The notes under the pieces are model-generated. The model was not told where the DNA came from and ran no database searches. It saw only the letters and a program-made list of their open reading frames with translations. Below, one piece after another: positions 6,113 to 62,957 of a DNA stretch of 62,957 nt. Position 1 is the stretch's first letter, and each line of letters opens with the position of its first letter. The DNA is from Candidatus Saccharimonadota bacterium (GTDB taxonomy: Bacteria > Patescibacteriota > Saccharimonadia > Saccharimonadales > SZUA-47). Location of the stretch: the NCBI GenBank assembly GCA_020428465.1, contig JAGQMY010000006.1, positions 1 to 62,957 of the forward strand. Direction: 5' to 3'. The position numbers and the translations under genes were made by a program.

Positions 6113-6712
6113 TTAGAGAGTTAGGCCTGTGTTTTTGACCAATTCGTCAAAATCTGGAACTTGCTTAGCAAACAGAACTCGCATCGTAGTCATCATACCT
6201 GCTGCTGTACCATCAGCCCTGTCACAAGAATCTGTCCAACGTCTCTCATTGTCTCCGACTTCTAGAATGTAGCGTTTTCCTCGAGGACATGATCCTTCGT
6301 CCATATAATCATCATCCGAAGTTGTGCCCGCATATCTATCTAGTGCCTTTGCCTTCTCGAGAGATTTTATAAAATTGTCGTATGATTGTACGTTATTTAC
6401 ATATGATTTTTCTGCTACTACCTTCAGTCCGTAGTCTGAAAATACTTTCATCTTGACAGTTTGGGCTGTAACTTCGATAGCGTAGCTACGATGTTCAGAA
6501 CTGGCCACAATAGGACCATCAACAATATATCGAACAACTTTAACATCATCTAAATTAGTTGTGTTTTCCTCGATATTAACTGTGGTAGGCGTATCTGATT
6601 TTTTGTTAAATACAGAACGAGCGATTGAGCTTAATCCCCAACCTACAAAAACCAAAACAACCAATAATAATAGAGTGGCTATAATCCATTTGAGCTTTGA
6701 ACCAAATCCCAT
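6113..6712 (-). CDS. hypothetical membrane-anchored protein
   Basis: Single N-terminal TM helix (WIIATLLLLVVLVFVGWGL). No recognisable domain. Confidence 0.5.
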   Translation of the reverse strand: MGFGSKLKWIIATLLLLVVLVFVGWGLSSIARSVFNKKSDTPTTVNIEENTTNLDDVKVVRYIVDGPIVASSEHRSYAIEVTAQTVKMKVFSDYGLKVVAEKSYVNNVQSYDNFIKSLEKAKALDRYAGTTSDDDYMDEGSCPRGKRYILEVGDNERRWTDSCDRADGTAAGMMTTMRVLFAKQVPDFDELVKNTGLTL

Positions 6713-10354: not shown

Positions 10355-13045
10355 TCAAAGTTCGCCCCAATTATGGCCAATACTCACATCGACTTTTAGA
10401 TGAACACCTAGCTCAGGATAAATTTGCTCCATGGTTTCTTTCATCATTTTACCGATTTTTTCTGCGTCCCCCTCCATACACTCAACCATAATCGAGTCGT
10501 GTATCTGCATTATCTGCTTTGGAAAAGCAGAATTTCGGATTTCGGATTTCGGATTTCGTGCTTTTGACCAATATTCACGCTCAAATATCTCGTCGATTTT
10601 ACTCATAGCTAATTTCGTAAGGTCAGCCGCAGACCCCTGTATTGGCATATTTATAGCTGCACGGTAAGCTCCCTCGCGTACCATAAAGTTACTCGACTGC
10701 ACATCGGGTGTTGGCCTCCTGCGACCCATGACTGTTTCGACATAACCTTTGTCTTTGGCGTCCCTACGAAATCTATCGATCATTTCTCGAAGCTTCGGTC
10801 GAACCTCGAAATATTTATCGATAAACTGCTTCGCATCAGCATATGATATGCCCGTTCCTTCACTCAAACCGTGCACACCTTGCCCATACAGAATACCGAA
10901 ATTTACTGCCTTAGCTGCGTAGCGCATTTCCTTAGTCACATCATCCGGTGTGACACCCTGAATTAAAGCAGCTGTTTCGGTATGAATATCCCTATCATCG
11001 TTAAAGGCTTTAATCATTTGCTCGTCACCACTCATAGCAGCAGCAATTCGTAACTCGAATTGACTATAGTCGGCGCTTATCAGCACATTACCAGGTTCTG
11101 CGATAAATCCTTCACGGATTTTTCGTCCGAGTTCAGTGCGTACCGGAATATTCTGCAGATTTGGATCATTGCTAGATAACCTGCCGGTCGCAGCAACTGT
11201 CATGTTCATCGTGCTGTGAACACGAGAGTTTTCATCAACCATCGTCGGCAATGGATCGACATAGGTACTTTTAAGCTTGGTGTACTCCCTGTATTTCTCA
11301 ATTTCGTCAATGATTGGATGTGTACCTTTTAGTTTGCCTAGGACATTGCTAGCAGTGCTGTAGTGCCCTGCTTTACCTTTTTTAGTCACATTAGTTGGCA
11401 AGCCCAATTTATCGAACAAAATTTCACTTAACTGGCTCGGACTCGAGATGTTAAATTCCTGATCAGCATAGCCATAAATCGTTTGTTCCACATCACTAAT
11501 CTGATCTGTTAGTTGTTCAGATAACTTGCCGAAGAACTTTGTATCAAGTTTCATCCCGACTCTCTCAAGTCGAGCTAGTACCGGTATTACCGGCCAATCA
11601 ACAGTCTCTGCCATTTTAATTAAGCTCGTAACTTCACTCATCTGTTCACCCTGCAAATTAGCGAGCTCCCTGATAACTGCAACGATTTCGGCAGATTTGC
11701 TCAATAGCTCATCATCGTCCAAGTCTTCTAGCTCTACCTCGTAACCTAAATCATTTGATGCTTGTTCACTCAAAGTTTGATCACGTCTAAGAGCATCTAC
11801 AGTAAAAGCACCTATTAGAGTGTCGTGTGAAACACGAGGTAATTTATCTACGCCCAGCTCCAACAAAACCTTAAATGAATTTTTTAAGTCATGCCCGATT
11901 ACAGAAGTTGGAAAGTTGAAGGCTGATCCGCCAGCTGGCGGACGAAAGTCTAAAGTACGTAAGTCAATCGCATAGCAGGTTTCTGAATCAGCTAGTAGCA
12001 AAATGGTCGGGTTCTTGCCGTGCTTACCAGCGCAACGAGCGTGCAGTACGACATCACCCTCGAGCTTTATATTCTTAATTTCGTCGCTAGATTTTACATA
12101 TACGACTTTAGGTAGGTGTAGCTCATGCGTACTTTCCGCTGGCGCGATAGATTCGACATTATGATTCTGCATACCCGCTGGTAAATTTCGAAGTAAACTC
12201 TTGAACTCCAGTCTCTTCAAAATCGCCGCTAATTCTGCTGTGTCTAGTTTATCGACATCCATTTCCTCGAGATCTAATGGCACAGGCGCGTCATCATAGA
12301 GTTGCGCTACTTCTCGGCTAAGATAAGCCGAATCCTTCCCCATCTCTAGTTTTTTTGACACAACTGGTTTAATTAGTGCTAAATTCTCGTAAACACCGTC
12401 GAGTGTTCCGTATTCTCTGAGTAACTCACTAGCAGTCTTCTCCCCTATGCCCGGTACTCCTGGGATGTTGTCACTTGAGTCGCCCTTCAGAGCCTTTGAG
12501 TCAAGAAATTGCTCAGTTTTGATTCCGTATTTTTCTTCGAAACTTTTTGGATCAAATTTTTCTATATTAGTCAGGCCTTTTTTCAGCGCATACAGATGAA
12601 TATGCTCATCGATTGTCTGCAAAGCGTCCAGGTCTGATGTGATTAACATAGTTTCTAGTCCAGCCTTTTCGGCCTTTTTAGCCAGAGTATGCATAATGTC
12701 GTCAGCTTCATAATCGTCGTACTCATATAGTGGCCAATTAAACACTTCTAAAACCTCGTGAAGTATCGGGATCTGTGCATAAAAATCAGGGGGAGCAGGC
12801 TTACGTCCGGCTTTGTAATCTGGATAAATCGCCAGACGCTTTCTAATGTTAGTCTTAGGTTTATCCCACGCCACGCACACATAATCTGGTTTCAAGCGCT
12901 TAATTAGCTCTAAAGCCATGGCACAGAAACCATAAACTCCACCAGTAGGAGTTCCATCTTTAGTGCTGAGATTCGGCATGGCATAGTAGCCTCTATAAAA
13001 GACGCTTTTTCCATCTATTATCGCCAACTTTTTCCGCTCACTCAT
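10355..13045 (-). CDS. polA: DNA polymerase I
   Basis: 5'-nuclease N-terminus (LAIIDGKS..GVPGIGEKTA), motif A DYSQFELRI, motif B RYAAKAVNFGILYG, motif C QIHDSIMVE. Confidence 0.95.
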   Translation of the reverse strand: MSERKKLAIIDGKSVFYRGYYAMPNLSTKDGTPTGGVYGFCAMALELIKRLKPDYVCVAWDKPKTNIRKRLAIYPDYKAGRKPAPPDFYAQIPILHEVLEVFNWPLYEYDDYEADDIMHTLAKKAEKAGLETMLITSDLDALQTIDEHIHLYALKKGLTNIEKFDPKSFEEKYGIKTEQFLDSKALKGDSSDNIPGVPGIGEKTASELLREYGTLDGVYENLALIKPVVSKKLEMGKDSAYLSREVAQLYDDAPVPLDLEEMDVDKLDTAELAAILKRLEFKSLLRNLPAGMQNHNVESIAPAESTHELHLPKVVYVKSSDEIKNIKLEGDVVLHARCAGKHGKNPTILLLADSETCYAIDLRTLDFRPPAGGSAFNFPTSVIGHDLKNSFKVLLELGVDKLPRVSHDTLIGAFTVDALRRDQTLSEQASNDLGYEVELEDLDDDELLSKSAEIVAVIRELANLQGEQMSEVTSLIKMAETVDWPVIPVLARLERVGMKLDTKFFGKLSEQLTDQISDVEQTIYGYADQEFNISSPSQLSEILFDKLGLPTNVTKKGKAGHYSTASNVLGKLKGTHPIIDEIEKYREYTKLKSTYVDPLPTMVDENSRVHSTMNMTVAATGRLSSNDPNLQNIPVRTELGRKIREGFIAEPGNVLISADYSQFELRIAAAMSGDEQMIKAFNDDRDIHTETAALIQGVTPDDVTKEMRYAAKAVNFGILYGQGVHGLSEGTGISYADAKQFIDKYFEVRPKLREMIDRFRRDAKDKGYVETVMGRRRPTPDVQSSNFMVREGAYRAAINMPIQGSAADLTKLAMSKIDEIFEREYWSKARNPKSEIRNSAFPKQIMQIHDSIMVECMEGDAEKIGKMMKETMEQIYPELGVHLKVDVSIGHNWGEL
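10532..10559. repeat. heptanucleotide tandem repeat (atttcgg x3 plus atttcgt) inside polA
   Basis: Read directly from the sequence. It encodes RNPKSEIRN in a loop just upstream of motif C. Confidence 0.9.
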
Positions 13046-39310: not shown

Positions 39311-39485
39311 AGAGGGAGGGATTCGGTCACCTTCGGCGACCCCCGAACTTCATTCTTGGCAACAAGTTGCCAGAAGAAGATTCGCTTCCGAACTGCCACC
39401 GGCAGTTCTCACCCTATCGGGTTCGAATTCGCAATTCACAATCCTTCATAGCTCACCCGTTGTTAACGGGATGAGCGACGAAGGA
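39311..39485 (-). repeat. tRNA-3'-flank structured element: terminator-like hairpin, inverted T-arm-like piece, 68-nt two-hairpin core, and a 15-nt copy of the tRNA-Ser(UGA) 3' part
   Basis: 39311-39325 (agagggagggattcg) equals 39492-39506 inside the tRNA. The core 39341-39408 is 55/68 identical to the reverse complement of 60092-60159. Confidence 0.75.
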
Positions 39486-59218: not shown

Positions 59219-59264
59219 AAGTATTCCTTTTTGTTACTAGTTATATATTATCACTATAGAAAAA

Positions 59265-59318
59265 TCCTCCATAGCTCCGTAAATACGGAGCGACAGAGGA
59301 TGGCGGAGAGGGGGAGAT
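59265..59318 (-). repeat. displaced tRNA-Ser(CGA) 3'-end copy (18 nt) with its conserved terminator hairpin
   Basis: 59301-59318 (tggcggagagggggagat) is identical to 59454-59471. The hairpin at 59265-59300 is the reverse complement of 60001-60035 with 2 substitutions and 1 indel. Confidence 0.8.
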
Positions 59319-59453
59319 GAGAAGGACCTAAATAATCTGTGCGCCGAGCATGTTAACCCGGGCAACAGACTATTTAGCGAACTCGCCTCGAGAATTCGAA
59401 TCTCTTCTCCAAAAGAAGAAAACGACCAGGATAAAACCTGGTCGCCCTTCTCC
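59319..59453 (-). repeat. 135-bp insert between tRNA-Ser(CGA) and its displaced 3'-end copy; carries its own terminator and an inverted degenerate tRNA-Ser copy
   Basis: Terminator CGACCAGG-UUUUAU-CCUGGUCG plus a U-tract (59411-59444). Then GGAGAAGAGATTCGAATTCTC...GCGCAC...GGTCCTTCTC mirrors the tRNA in reverse orientation. Confidence 0.65.
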
Positions 59454-59544
59454 TGGCGGAGAGGGGGAGATTCGAACTCCCGATAGAGTTGCCCCTATAC
59501 TGCATTTCGAGTGCAGCGCACTAGACCAACTATGCGACCTCTCC
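59454..59544 (-). tRNA. tRNA-Ser(CGA), CCA encoded
   Basis: Manual fold: acceptor GGAGAGG, anticodon stem CTGCA/TGCAG, loop CUCGAAA, long variable arm, T arm GGGAG-TTCGAAT-CTCCC. Confidence 0.9.
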
Positions 59545-59610
59545 AAGCTCTGGTAATTATACTATAATCATGCTAATATTACCCCTGTTTGAGTAAGATG
59601 TAGCTTCCCC

Positions 59611-59725
59611 AAAATCGAGAAAGGATTCTCGATTTTGAAGAAACGGCGACTTCCTAGGATCGTCATGAGTTTTAGGGAACTTGTTTTGCTAAAACTTCGG
59701 CGATCCTAGGTTTACGCGCCGTTTC
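59611..59725 (+). repeat. two strong hairpins abutting the tRNA-Arg 5' end
   Basis: 59611-59636 is a 10-bp perfect stem. 59640-59725 is a three-segment stem (9+10+8 bp: gaaacggcg/cgccgtttc, cctaggatcg/cgatcctagg, agttttag/ctaaaact) with an apical AACTTGTT motif. Confidence 0.7.
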
Positions 59726-59802
<77 letters not shown>

Positions 59803-60194
59803 ATAAAAATGACTCAAGTTATCTTGGGTCTTTTTTATTGGACCATCCAGTATCTTTGAACGTACGACCGTAGGCGAGAAAGCTCGGGGAGCTTTCGAGT
59901 TTTCCTTGCTTGGCCACCCGAGATGCTTTAGCTCTCGAGGGTGCGAAAAATAATAAGTTTCTCGTTCAATCCGCCAGATGTCGGAGTATCGGGTGTACCG
60001 TCCTCCGTCGCTCCGTGTTTACGGAGCATGGAGGATTTTACGTTCTATACAGTTTTCACGCTATCGAGCTTCAGCTGAAGGGAGTACATGAGAATGTCCG
60101 GTGGACATTCGCAAGGAAACCTTCTTCTGGCAACTTGTTGCCAAGAACGAAGTTTCGGGCCCGCGCTTGCGTGGGCAAATCGTATCGGGTGTAC
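59803..60194 (+). repeat. nested tRNA-3'-flank insertions at tRNA-Arg
   Basis: 3'-end copies at 59986-59999 (14 nt) and 60176-60194 (19 nt). Inverted tRNA pieces at 59855-59869 (15 nt, T arm) and 59938-59948 (5' end plus flank). Displaced terminator hairpin at 60001-60035 plus TTTT. 68-nt core at 60092-60159. Confidence 0.75.
59811..59836 (+). terminator. intrinsic terminator after tRNA-Arg
   Basis: GACTCAAG-TTAT-CTTGGGTC followed by TTTTTT. Confidence 0.75.
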
Positions 60195-60261
60195 TACCAT
60201 CTTTCGTAACATTCTATGTGGAGTAATAGGGGTTTTTAGATTGTTTTGATACTCTTTATTC

Positions 60262-60654
60262 ATGAGTCACCCAATAAAACATTACTCTCATCTATTTTAT
60301 AAAGAGTTAGCATTGTCTTTATTGGCACTTTTAAGTATAGCCCTCGTAATTATTGAATACCTCCTAAATGTAAGTGAACCAATTAGGGCAAGTATTATTC
60401 GTTTTGATATCCTAGTAGCTATTATATTTTTGATAGATTTCACTTGGTACTTCTCGAAGAGTAAGAGAAAGCTAAAATATATTAAATCTAACTGGTTTTT
60501 ACTACTAGCTTCTATTCCAATTGTAGATAGTTGGGCTGAACTTTTGAGGGGTCTTAGGTTATTCGAGTTAGTCAGACTGGTTCGTGCGGGAGAGCATTTA
60601 AACTATGTAATTAACGGGCAGGGAGGTAAGAATGCTAATACACGTAGGCTCTAA
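60262..60654 (+). CDS. stand-alone voltage-sensor-domain-like membrane protein (ion-transport family S1-S4 without a pore)
   Basis: Four hydrophobic segments. The last one, LLRGLRLFELVRLVRAG, has Arg at every third position like an S4 helix. 130 aa. Confidence 0.5.
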   Translation: MSHPIKHYSHLFYKELALSLLALLSIALVIIEYLLNVSEPIRASIIRFDILVAIIFLIDFTWYFSKSKRKLKYIKSNWFLLLASIPIVDSWAELLRGLRLFELVRLVRAGEHLNYVINGQGGKNANTRRL

Positions 60655-62634: not shown

Positions 62635-62718
62635 AAGCAATATTGTAGCATGTATTACTGTGTTGGTAAGTTTATGGTTCAAACTAAAACAACCGTGGCA
62701 AGCACGGTCATTTTAGTC

Positions 62719-62957
62719 TGGCTCAAGAGAGAGGTGAAAAAGTCCAGTGGACTTTTGCAAGACCGGAAACGCTGCGCAAATTATTGCTAGAGCTGAGGTG
62801 GGGTCGCGGAATTTGGCTTTAGCCAAATATCTGTGACTTCGTTCGAATCCCGTCCCGTGATCACGAAAAAACGTCTTTGAAAACAAGTTTTCAAGAGTTT
62901 GTTTCCTTGCAAAATGCCACAAGCATTTATCACCCACGCAAAGCACTCAATGTGCTT
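62719..62957. repeat. further copy or copies of the tRNA-flank element family, running off the window end
   Basis: 62874-62930 (tctttgaaaacaagttttcaagag + tttgtttccttgc + aaatgccacaagcattt) parallels the core at 39351-39408. An inverted partial arm lies at 62737-62769. A T-arm-like gttcgaatcc lies at 62841-62850. Confidence 0.55.

Follow-up and report, generated by a model that had tools for sequence, protein, structure and literature searches.

Partial tRNA-Arg copies and a family of structured modules downstream of a tRNA gene in a Saccharibacteria genome

The window analyzed here is the whole 62,957-nt stretch of contig JAGQMY010000006.1, a housekeeping region of a Candidatus Saccharibacteria genome with a GC content of about 40% and with genes that include ValRS, ArgRS, GroEL, sigma-70 and DnaG. 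Saccharibacteria are episymbionts with genomes of roughly 1 Mb, in which tRNA genes are probably single-copy. The DNA relatives of the window were all Saccharibacteria or metagenome-assembled genomes (MAGs) of Saccharimonadales, and a Joint Genome Institute (JGI) contig was 100% identical to the window over 5.8 kb of overlap. The region under study begins directly behind an intact tRNA-Arg gene, where an earlier note, made from the letters alone, had described short insertions that duplicate the tRNA 3' end. This region (59803-60194) is a decayed array of partial tRNA-Arg copies in direct-inverted-direct order, and it houses two structured modules, here termed core-B and core-A (Table 1). Core-A recurs inside fragmentary copies of many other tRNAs in Saccharibacteria; loci outside the window are designated by L and a number.

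Table 1. Features of the tRNA-Arg locus, of the other tRNA tails in the window and of related loci
Feature	Position	Strand	Remarks
tRNA-Arg(GCG), intact, reference for the copies	59726..59802	+	ARAGORN; Rfam tRNA model, 62 bits; 100% identical in the sister strain
T1, palindromic bidirectional terminator	59803..59841	.	arms reach CCA/TGG; inverted repeat 59793-59818 / 59823-59848
Inverted copy of tRNA-Arg variable loop + T-arm (GGTCGTACGTTCAAA)	59855..59869	-	exact 15-mer; kept in L036 and L041
Core-B, structured module (GCGAGA + hairpin 59880-59897 + more hairpins)	59874..59962	+	aligns with L036 and L041
Direct T-loop remnant (CGTTCAATCC), pairs with the inverted T-arm, closing core-B	59963..59972	+	six pairs TTGAAC/GTTCAA invariant in 3 species
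Direct copy 1 of the tRNA-Arg 3' end (GTATCGGGTGTACC), 14 nt	59986..59999	+	
Hairpin A, terminator-like two-tier hairpin + TTTT	60001..60039	+	terminator scan
Remnant of tRNA-Arg positions ~39-53 (CTGAAGGgaGTACa vs CTGAAGGtcGTACg), 5' side of the interrupted T-arm	60075..60088	+	sequence reading; junction table
Core-A, ~88-nt three-hairpin module between T54 and C56 of a partial tRNA-Arg copy	60089..60176	+	covariance model, 98 bits
Direct copy 2, tRNA-Arg T-loop to 3' end (CAAATCGTATCGGGTGTAC), 19 nt, 3' flank of core-A	60176..60194	+	
tRNA-Ser(TGA) tail, same architecture	39311..39485	-	hairpin A 39441-39485; core-A 39325-39411 (109 bits); tRNA-Ser 3' copy GAATCCCTCCCTCT 39311-39324
tRNA-Ser(CGA) tail	59261..59318	-	18-nt direct 3'-end copy 59301-59318, then hairpin A 59261-59300
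Two divergent core copies at the window end, among tRNA-Ser fragments	62735..62932	.	62846-62932(-), 69.8 bits; 62735-62818(+), 38.9 bits
TA(T/C)AAT-TACCCCTGTT motif	window 59574-59590; L036:1593-1610; L041:678-695; L051:~11880-11895; L011:~6585-6600		
Recombinase genes	L033:3-1319; L049:10001-11680; L050:10001-11659; L051:10001-11662; L052:10001-11350		

The repeats are real and far beyond chance expectation. The 13-mer GTATCGGGTGTAC has three occurrences in the window (0.02 expected), a number that 0 of 100 shuffles reached, and the inverted T-arm 15-mer occurs twice against 0.03 expected and is retained at the orthologous locus in two other species. Every match to tRNA-Arg listed in the earlier note is present, with one exception as to significance: the 10-nt inverted match to the tRNA 5' end (59939-59948) stands at chance level, with several unrelated inverted matches of 10-11 nt in the same 1.1 kb. 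A terminator scan was passed by 59811-59830 together with its T-run and by the whole of hairpin A with its TTTT. Because the 14 nt preceding core-A are still recognizable as tRNA positions ~39-53, the 19-nt repeat that ends the region is the 3' flank of a partial tRNA-Arg copy interrupted in its T-loop.

Core-A is a module of about 88 nt with three hairpins, closed by the T-stem of the host tRNA copy. The 68-nt core with two hairpins that had been recognized earlier is real and is incomplete, since a third hairpin extends it to this length. When 11 copies were folded jointly with RNAalifold, 36 pairs were obtained, 14 of them with compensatory changes, and the closing junction with the host T-stem was among the structure recovered. 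Across 18 distinct copies, the cells of the pairs were paired in 97.4% (77.8% in shuffles), and changes on both sides were found in 21 of 32 pairs, whereas sliding the partners by 1-3 columns gave at most 7. G.T pairs outnumber A.C pairs by 26 to 3 in the core-A alignment, which assigns the fold to the tRNA-sense strand, whether RNA or single-stranded DNA. The predicted fold of the window copy has -49 kcal/mol (z = -3.7), and the hairpin loops in the alignment have CUUG or GNRA-like caps. Hairpins 1 and 3 are unlike each other in sequence. Hairpin 2 is invariant in the copies recovered by exact words and covaries in the divergent ones, and is therefore a structure rather than a protein-binding palindrome.

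Several known classes of element were considered for core-A and set aside. Hairpin 2 as a double-stranded attachment site of a serine recombinase (a palindrome with central TT) was rejected on its compensatory arms (CTTGAAAAC/GTTTTCAAAG, CTTGCAAAC/GTTTGCAAAG), and the junctions of the serine recombinase described below lack similarity to it. Hammerhead ribozymes, group I and group II introns and integron attC sites were judged on their consensus features, and the junction sequences or the size fit none of them. An inverted arm acting as the acceptor 5' strand of a tRNA-like fold was ruled out on the sequences of L017 and the window. In searches with Rfam 15, only tRNAs reached the gathering score in the whole window, and the only significant matches within 59300-60500 at E-values up to 10 were tRNA.

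Copies of core-A were collected in three ways. The exact 21-mer of hairpin 2 led to five Saccharibacteria MAG loci, and a 19-mer search of metagenomes returned nine further true copies together with nine chance matches. A covariance model of core-A was then used to detect divergent copies, which yielded three in L011 (one each at tRNA-Pro, tRNA-His and tRNA-Gly), a pair at the window end and later those in L036, L049 and L051. The collection comprises 18 distinct copies from Saccharibacteria genomes and metagenomes. The expectation that further copies adjoin tRNA genes was borne out, with two or three more in the window and at least 14 in other Saccharibacteria loci, and a direct repeat of the tRNA 3' segment is found at this locus (14 + 19 nt) and at 14 others.

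In each of the true copies, the 5' flank ends in the 5' strand of the T-stem plus T54, and the 3' flank begins at C56/R57 and runs through the 3' strand of the T-stem and the acceptor strand, often as far as CCA. The insertion point is the universally conserved T-loop motif divided as GG-TT-CRA, with T55 replaced. The 5' flank is G-rich at its end in 18/18 copies, and the 3' flank begins in the T-loop sequence (C)GA(A/T)T, AAAT or AAGT in 16/18, the exceptions being L008 and a window-end copy. In L008, the sole site outside a T-loop, core-A lies in the anticodon loop of tRNA-Pro(GGG) at a local GGGGTCGTGA (look-alike GGGGTCG); because this resembles the T-loop sequence GGTTCGA, the target of core-A looks sequence-defined.

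The cognate tRNA lies nearby and on the same strand in 15/18 copies. The interrupted tRNA copies are 5'-truncated or decayed, and in the same proportion (15/18) an intact gene stands beside them. Twelve copies sit 63-91 nt downstream of a tRNA (for L012, the nearest tRNA is not the cognate one). The core-A of the tRNA-Arg locus is 286 nt downstream of its tRNA because another unit intervenes, and the core of L010 lies 4.5 kb downstream of its cognate tRNA-Glu(CTC), with cargo genes between. Three copies (L008, the tRNA-Gly copy of L011, and L051) are mirrored, with the intact tRNA following them at a distance of 43-53 nt. Here, the interrupted tRNA retains the native upstream (promoter) region together with either a 5' half or a decayed tRNA of near full length, and the intact tRNA behind it has a new upstream region or, in the case of L011, a duplicated promoter.

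The hosts span about 11 tRNA identities: Arg GCG/TCG, Ser TGA/GGA/GCT/CGA, Glu CTC, Pro TGG/GGG, Lys TTT, Gln CTG, His and Gly TCC. The cores at tRNA-Pro in L011 and at tRNA-Gln in L015 are 100% identical over 74 nt and have unrelated flanks. L017 and L030 belong to one genome (548 nt 100% identical) and have units of 212 nt, 96.7% identical to each other, behind tRNA-Ser(GGA) and behind tRNA-Ser(GCT). At tRNA-Ser(TGA), the window and L020 carry differing core lineages, and MAG HKST-UBA72 has at least four copies at four different tRNAs.

The first unit behind tRNA-Arg (unit 1) had been described as an inverted, diverged copy of the tRNA. Its T-arm 15-mer is indeed an exact inverted match, but the remainder is core-B, which reads on the plus strand, and not tRNA body. 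Only the T-arm is inverted, and since the 10-nt match to the tRNA 5' end is at chance level and missing from L036 and L041, nothing points to a whole inverted tRNA. L036 and L041 belong to species whose neighboring HAD-HTH protein is 67-69% identical. At both loci, as in the window, tRNA-Arg is followed by a palindromic terminator, an inverted T-arm, a plus-strand module, and a direct copy running from the T-loop to the 3' end. Core-B can be aligned across the three species, its first hairpin shows compensatory changes (AAGCTC/GAGCTT vs CATGCC/GGCATG), and it is closed by the inverted T-arm pairing with the direct T-arm. The 5' half of core-B consists of GCGAGA, the hairpin CATGCC-AGT-GGCATG and TTGAGGAATC; that of core-A consists of GTGAGA, the same hairpin and TTGCAAGGAAATC. 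Through this common 5' half, the two modules are clearly related, as paralogues. Because unit 1 has been kept at tRNA-Arg in species this divergent, it is old, and it is not a recent nested insertion.

The other tRNA tails of the window share this organization. Short-word BLAST of the region against the window found hairpin A again downstream of tRNA-Ser(CGA) and, behind tRNA-Ser(TGA), a 34-nt stretch of the core with 97% identity. All three ends of tRNA transcription units in the window consist of the tRNA, a terminator-type hairpin and, later, a direct copy of the tRNA's own 3' end; in 2/3 of them the core directly precedes that copy. Hairpin A always adjoins a CCA end, whether that of a tRNA proper or that of a 3' copy, and its paralogues in the two tRNA-Ser tails and in L009 have compensatory changes in the stem. 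It is thus a paralogous module common to four tRNA tails of differing identity. Ahead of the 3' copy of tRNA-Ser(CGA) come the terminator of this tRNA itself and a piece that resembles an inverted T-arm (59401-59453).

Comparison of orthologous loci, as the earlier note had suggested, revealed that the content after tRNA-Arg and after tRNA-Ser(CGA) differs between strains that are ~96% identical. The sister-strain contigs L032-L034 have this identity to the window from ValRS through TM2. Their tRNA-Arg is unchanged through CCA and is followed by a simple terminator and a large serine recombinase gene. No part of window positions 59803-60260 is present directly after it; the recombinase element, with its far end unassembled, sits there instead. 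The contigs that carry the downstream NTPase gene are short and end in or near the module. The tRNA-Ser(CGA) region (window 59454-59588 vs L033:1421-1557) has 76% identity against ~96% in the flanking genes; recombination has replaced this tRNA gene together with its tail. Here the window has a coreless unit and the sister strain one with a divergent core, which matches window 62727-62869 at 97% identity, and the alignment resumes exactly at the 3' copy and hairpin A. As the content of both tails differs between the strains, the tails of tRNA-Arg and tRNA-Ser(CGA) are hot spots of recombination within the species.

The serine recombinase is a layer separate from the repeats. The truncated recombinase ORF (open reading frame) of L033 contains PF07508 and PF13408, and a full-length homologue of 547 aa, 99% identical to it, also contains PF00239 (Resolvase); with Resolvase, Recombinase and zinc-ribbon domains, the protein is a large serine recombinase. 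The family, of ~545 aa, has >400 homologues at E <= 1e-30. At 5/5 loci examined (L033 and L049-L052, with tRNA-Arg anticodons GCG, GCG, GCG, TCG and CCT, respectively), the 3' end of the gene overlaps tRNA-Arg antisense by ~65 nt, an arrangement not found described in the literature. The elements, of ~5.6-6.5 kb, have a conserved trio of genes (~250, ~50 and ~120 aa) upstream of the recombinase and variable cargo, including an Mrr-like nuclease in two. Their far ends read "...GTACCA + palindromic terminator" and have no core of their own, which places the crossover in the last ~6 nt of the tRNA (GTACCA). The tRNA-Arg and T1 of the window therefore constitute an unoccupied attachment site, and the recombinase element does not explain the repeats. 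The displacement of the same sequence to the far end of the elements in L049-L051 also marks T1 as the native terminator of tRNA-Arg. Behind the displaced terminator, L051 has an inverted T-arm, then a module resembling core-B and a 3' copy, and L050 has the module and a truncated 3' copy with no clear inverted T-arm; because these units lie beyond the displaced terminator, they are chromosomal and older than the recombinase insertion. The idea that tRNA-Arg is an integration site thus stands for the sister strain, where a serine recombinase element uses it, but this element is separate from the window units and has a different junction.

Enzymes that might move the modules were sought with Pfam. 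The earlier note had recognized no integrase or transposase, and this was borne out in 30 ORFs of the window, all of which are housekeeping or unassigned to a family. Neither these nor the tested ORFs of the L010 segment and of the fetched part of L019 contained a recombinase, transposase, TnpB or reverse transcriptase, so the units at these loci lack a recombinase of their own. Among the loci scanned and the 30 window ORFs, no IscB, Cas12, TnpB or transposase effector was detected. In viral contigs the 19-mer gave one chance match and a degenerate 29-mer none, and blastn of the core at distant settings against phages and plasmids gave no match. Full-text literature searches returned no description of T-loop inserts or of the core module in Saccharibacteria or other bacteria of the candidate phyla radiation (CPR).

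The reading that we tentatively favor, at somewhat short of an even chance, is that the modules are non-autonomous, structure-dependent elements, mobilized in trans, that target the T-loop motif GGTTCRA and are tolerated only in redundant tRNA copies. Each trailing tRNA fragment carries one member of a family of small structured modules, in an array hinged on the palindromic terminator of the tRNA and on its T-arm. Propagation would depend on the fold of the tRNA-sense strand, be it single-stranded DNA or RNA, and core-A would insert at this motif with replacement of T55. Because tRNA genes are probably single-copy, such an insertion would survive only where the tRNA gene had been partly duplicated. 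The intact copy would stay functional and the interrupted copy would decay, and the T-stem and 3' end beside the module would persist as apparent direct repeats of the tRNA 3' end. The duplication might either precede the insertion or arise from it, for example through repair of a break in the T-loop.

A number of points weigh against this reading. Recovery by exact 21-mer and 19-mer words biases the collection toward one hairpin-2 sequence, and the Pfam search covered 30 of the 67 window ORFs (mainly those of 230-580 aa) on this contig alone. Genomes showed one or a few copies of core-A, far below the numbers typical of miniature inverted-repeat transposable elements (MITEs). An inverted T-arm piece adjoins the module in almost every unit, and the terminators after intact tRNAs are palindromes that reach CCA/TGG (included in at least eight loci); simple insertion accounts for neither. 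Among the core-A copies, no transposition intermediate, terminal inverted repeats or target duplication of fixed length were found; the ends, TGAGA... and ...GTGACC, are not inverted repeats, and the direct repeats range over 10-21 nt. Furthermore, despite the small genomes (roughly 1 Mb) typical of the phylum, modules are retained at the same tRNA in distant species (core-B at tRNA-Arg in three, and the cores at tRNA-Ser(CGA), tRNA-Ser(TGA) and tRNA-Glu(CTC) in two each). Taken with the compensatory changes, this retention is as compatible with a selected function as with selfish spread.

Such a function could be that of a small RNA, which we consider unlikely, though the best placed of the alternatives. 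Core-A and core-B would then be genes under selection, with the tRNA-like T-stem and 3' tail serving transcription, processing or stability, and recombination between tRNA tails would have spread them to many tRNAs as a by-product. This would fit the maintenance of the fold through compensatory changes, the restriction of G.U pairs to the tRNA-sense strand, the CUUG or GNRA-like loop caps, and the retention of same-tRNA units across species at 67-69% HAD-HTH identity. The copies of the upstream type also have suitable sequences ahead of them, a tRNA-type promoter motif (TAcAAT-TACCCCTGTT) in L051 and a TATAAT-containing sequence in L011, and 3' copies often finish in CCA followed by a terminator. 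However, most copies are cut off from their tRNA by a strong terminator and have no promoter-like site ahead, and their presence is patchy among close strains. The sequence adjacent to the modules decays freely, with 3' copies of 10-14 nt and loss of acceptor pairing.

The interpretation of the earlier note, that the direct repeats are attL/attR of nested integrations, is in our view distinctly unlikely. Each unit would be the attR side of an element, a deletion remnant or a derivative resembling a cis-mobilizable element (CIME), and the core would be the attP-proximal arm. The direct repeats do begin in the T-loop, reportedly a classical crossover sublocation of tRNA-targeting integrases (in the scheme of Williams, 2002). 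L010 has 4.5 kb of cargo (VanY, ABC transporter) between tRNA-Glu and the core with its 20-nt 3' copy, L014 and L019 diverge once the CCA that closes the 3' copy has been passed, and in the sister strain and four other loci a large serine recombinase uses tRNA-Arg as a live attachment site. Nevertheless, the 88-nt module lies in the middle of the supposed crossover region, with the T-stem of the same tRNA on both sides, and splits the T-loop of the downstream copy, an arrangement that an integrase does not leave behind. The three mirrored layouts, in which the interrupted copy is upstream and the 5' part or the promoter is duplicated, are not predicted by an attP that carries a 3' tRNA fragment, and one core family at ~11 tRNAs would demand repeated re-specification of attP. 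No integrase occurs in or beside the units at the loci scanned, and the core is on no phage or plasmid in the collections searched. Finally, the recombinase that was found crosses over in the terminal GTACCA and leaves a coreless far end, which gives no repeats of 14-20 nt starting from the T-loop.

It is improbable, in our estimate, that core-A and core-B are a mobile element acting at the RNA level or guided by RNA and aimed at the T-loop, the one sequence common to all tRNA genes, whether an intron-like RNA that inserts into T-loops and returns to DNA or a scaffold plus guide that would lead an enzyme to tRNA genes. In the latter version, the guide would be the segment from T-loop to CCA, the motif would be GTTC, and the inverted T-arms and palindromic terminators would be scars of repair. 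Quite improbable is a purely local origin with nothing mobile, by snap-back or template-switch errors at the terminator and T-arm hairpins followed by gene conversion among tRNA tails. The order seen, direct-inverted-direct and joined at the terminator hairpin and next to the T-arm, would be expected of it and recalls the tandem inversion duplications reportedly described in Salmonella by Kugelberg and Roth, and the palindromes containing CCA/TGG fit as well. It leaves unaccounted for, however, an 88-nt module that is not tRNA and has a conserved fold at the same T-loop position of ~11 tRNAs in many species, as well as cores that are 100% identical between unrelated flanks. Very improbable is a guide-RNA-like module with the core as scaffold, the adjoining 14-20 nt as a guide that brings an RNA-guided nuclease or transposase to tRNA genes and GTTC as adjacent motif: the 3' side of the scaffold does match the neighboring tRNA gene, T-T-C reads directly 5' of the matched segment in every tRNA, and inverted T-arm pieces and palindromes might be the scars of repeated breaks near the T-loop, but effector genes were absent as described above, no omega-RNA family of Rfam matched, several of the "guides" are degraded to 10-14 nt, and the 5' flank matches the tRNA too, as if the module had entered a copy of the tRNA and had not acquired a guide.

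The modules share features with several known systems. The ssrA islands of Dehalococcoides are described as tandem arrays with repeated 3' ends that are moved by a serine recombinase (PMC3146451). As in elements that target tRNA or tmRNA genes and in CIMEs, 3'-end repeats here bracket inserted DNA in tandem units that vary between strains, some of them without a recombinase, and a serine recombinase element occupies the same tRNA-Arg in the sister strain. Unlike in those elements, the repeat is split from its own T-stem by the 88-nt insert in the T-loop, mirrored layouts occur, and one module family is spread over ~11 tRNA identities with no linked integrase among the ORFs scanned. The recombinase itself resembles phiC31/Bxb1-type integrases in its Resolvase, Recombinase and zinc-ribbon domains and in its place at one border of an element of ~5.6-6.5 kb that is inserted in the 3' end of a tRNA, but differs from the arrangements found described in that its gene overlaps the tRNA antisense; it is not part of the window repeats.

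Palindrome-associated transposable elements (PATEs) of IS200/IS605 move as single-stranded DNA. Like these and like MITEs, core-A is short (~90 nt), non-coding, multi-copy, target-specific and enzyme-less, with hairpins of one strand, and its near-identical copies are dispersed (18 distinct, with 100%-identical cores at different tRNAs). In contrast to such elements, it lacks terminal inverted repeats and a fixed target duplication, has a low copy number and always lies in a tRNA fragment; its outer hairpins are dissimilar, and no Y1 transposase or TnpB was present among the ORFs scanned. To our knowledge, bacteria do not have a splicing endonuclease of the archaeal type, and thus nothing suggests that core-A is spliced. 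Non-canonical introns of archaeal tRNAs, T-loop positions included, have been proposed to transpose between tRNAs, and split and permuted tRNAs also occur (PMC3218864). Core-A is likewise a short structured insert at a defined loop position with relatives in different tRNAs, but it is bacterial, its host copy is truncated or decayed, and an intact uninterrupted gene stands alongside. Similar to the omega-RNA of TnpB and to the tRNA-homing CRISPR RNA (crRNA) of type V-K CRISPR-associated transposons (CAST), core-A presents a scaffold followed by ~16-20 nt identical to the neighboring or target tRNA gene; it differs from them in the tRNA-derived 5' flank, in the frequent degradation of the guide-like part and in the lack of an effector gene at the loci scanned.

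The module family is a form of tRNA-gene parasite or of tRNA-linked RNA not found in Rfam 15 or in the literature searched. With a fold kept by compensatory change, turnover between close strains and no enzyme of its own, it offers a testable handle on how mobile DNA or RNA might exploit the most conserved motif in biology without death of the host, and it bears on the origin of variable regions at tRNA genes in CPR bacteria. On the practical side, such repeats break metagenome assemblies at tRNA loci, and several contigs end within modules.

Some further observations concern the surroundings of the modules. The 4.5-kb segment of L010 (L010:2230-6700) encodes a VanY-type peptidase, an ABC transporter and three ORFs without a Pfam family; bounded by tRNA-Glu(CTC) and by the core with a 20-nt copy of the tRNA-Glu 3' end, it is island-like. 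L014 is 99.9% identical to L019 and L018 over the upstream genes, tRNA-Lys, the core and the 3' copy as far as its CCA; beyond that CCA the genes are wholly different, with the break in synteny exactly there. At the end of the window (62678-62957) and in its continuation (L001:1-260), a 57-nt repeat containing a terminator occurs three times together with tRNA-Ser 3' ends, and the contig end is a dense nest of tRNA-Ser fragments whose two divergent cores are oppositely oriented. Between the tRNA-Arg tail and the NTPase gene, 60262-60654 encodes a membrane protein of 130 aa that is absent from L036, where the NTPase gene directly follows the tail; several metagenome contigs begin within or just upstream of this ORF, which may be part of the variable region.

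Upstream of the array, the tRNA-Arg for CGN codons has the anticodon GCG, as in L036, L041, L049 and L050, the usual bacterial form of this tRNA being ACG (inosine). The motif TA(T/C)AAT-TACCCCTGTT, a -10 box with a fixed downstream block, precedes tRNA genes of differing identity in several Saccharibacteria and is probably a lineage-specific tRNA promoter or discriminator. Between this promoter-like motif and tRNA-Arg, the leader (59592-59720) contains nested long hairpins, GAAACGGCG...CGCCGTTTC around CCTAGGATCG...CGATCCTAGG, plus AAAATCGAGAA/TTCTCGATTTT. Because the leaders differ or are much shorter in the sister strain and in L036 and L041, this leader looks like an inserted palindromic element too.

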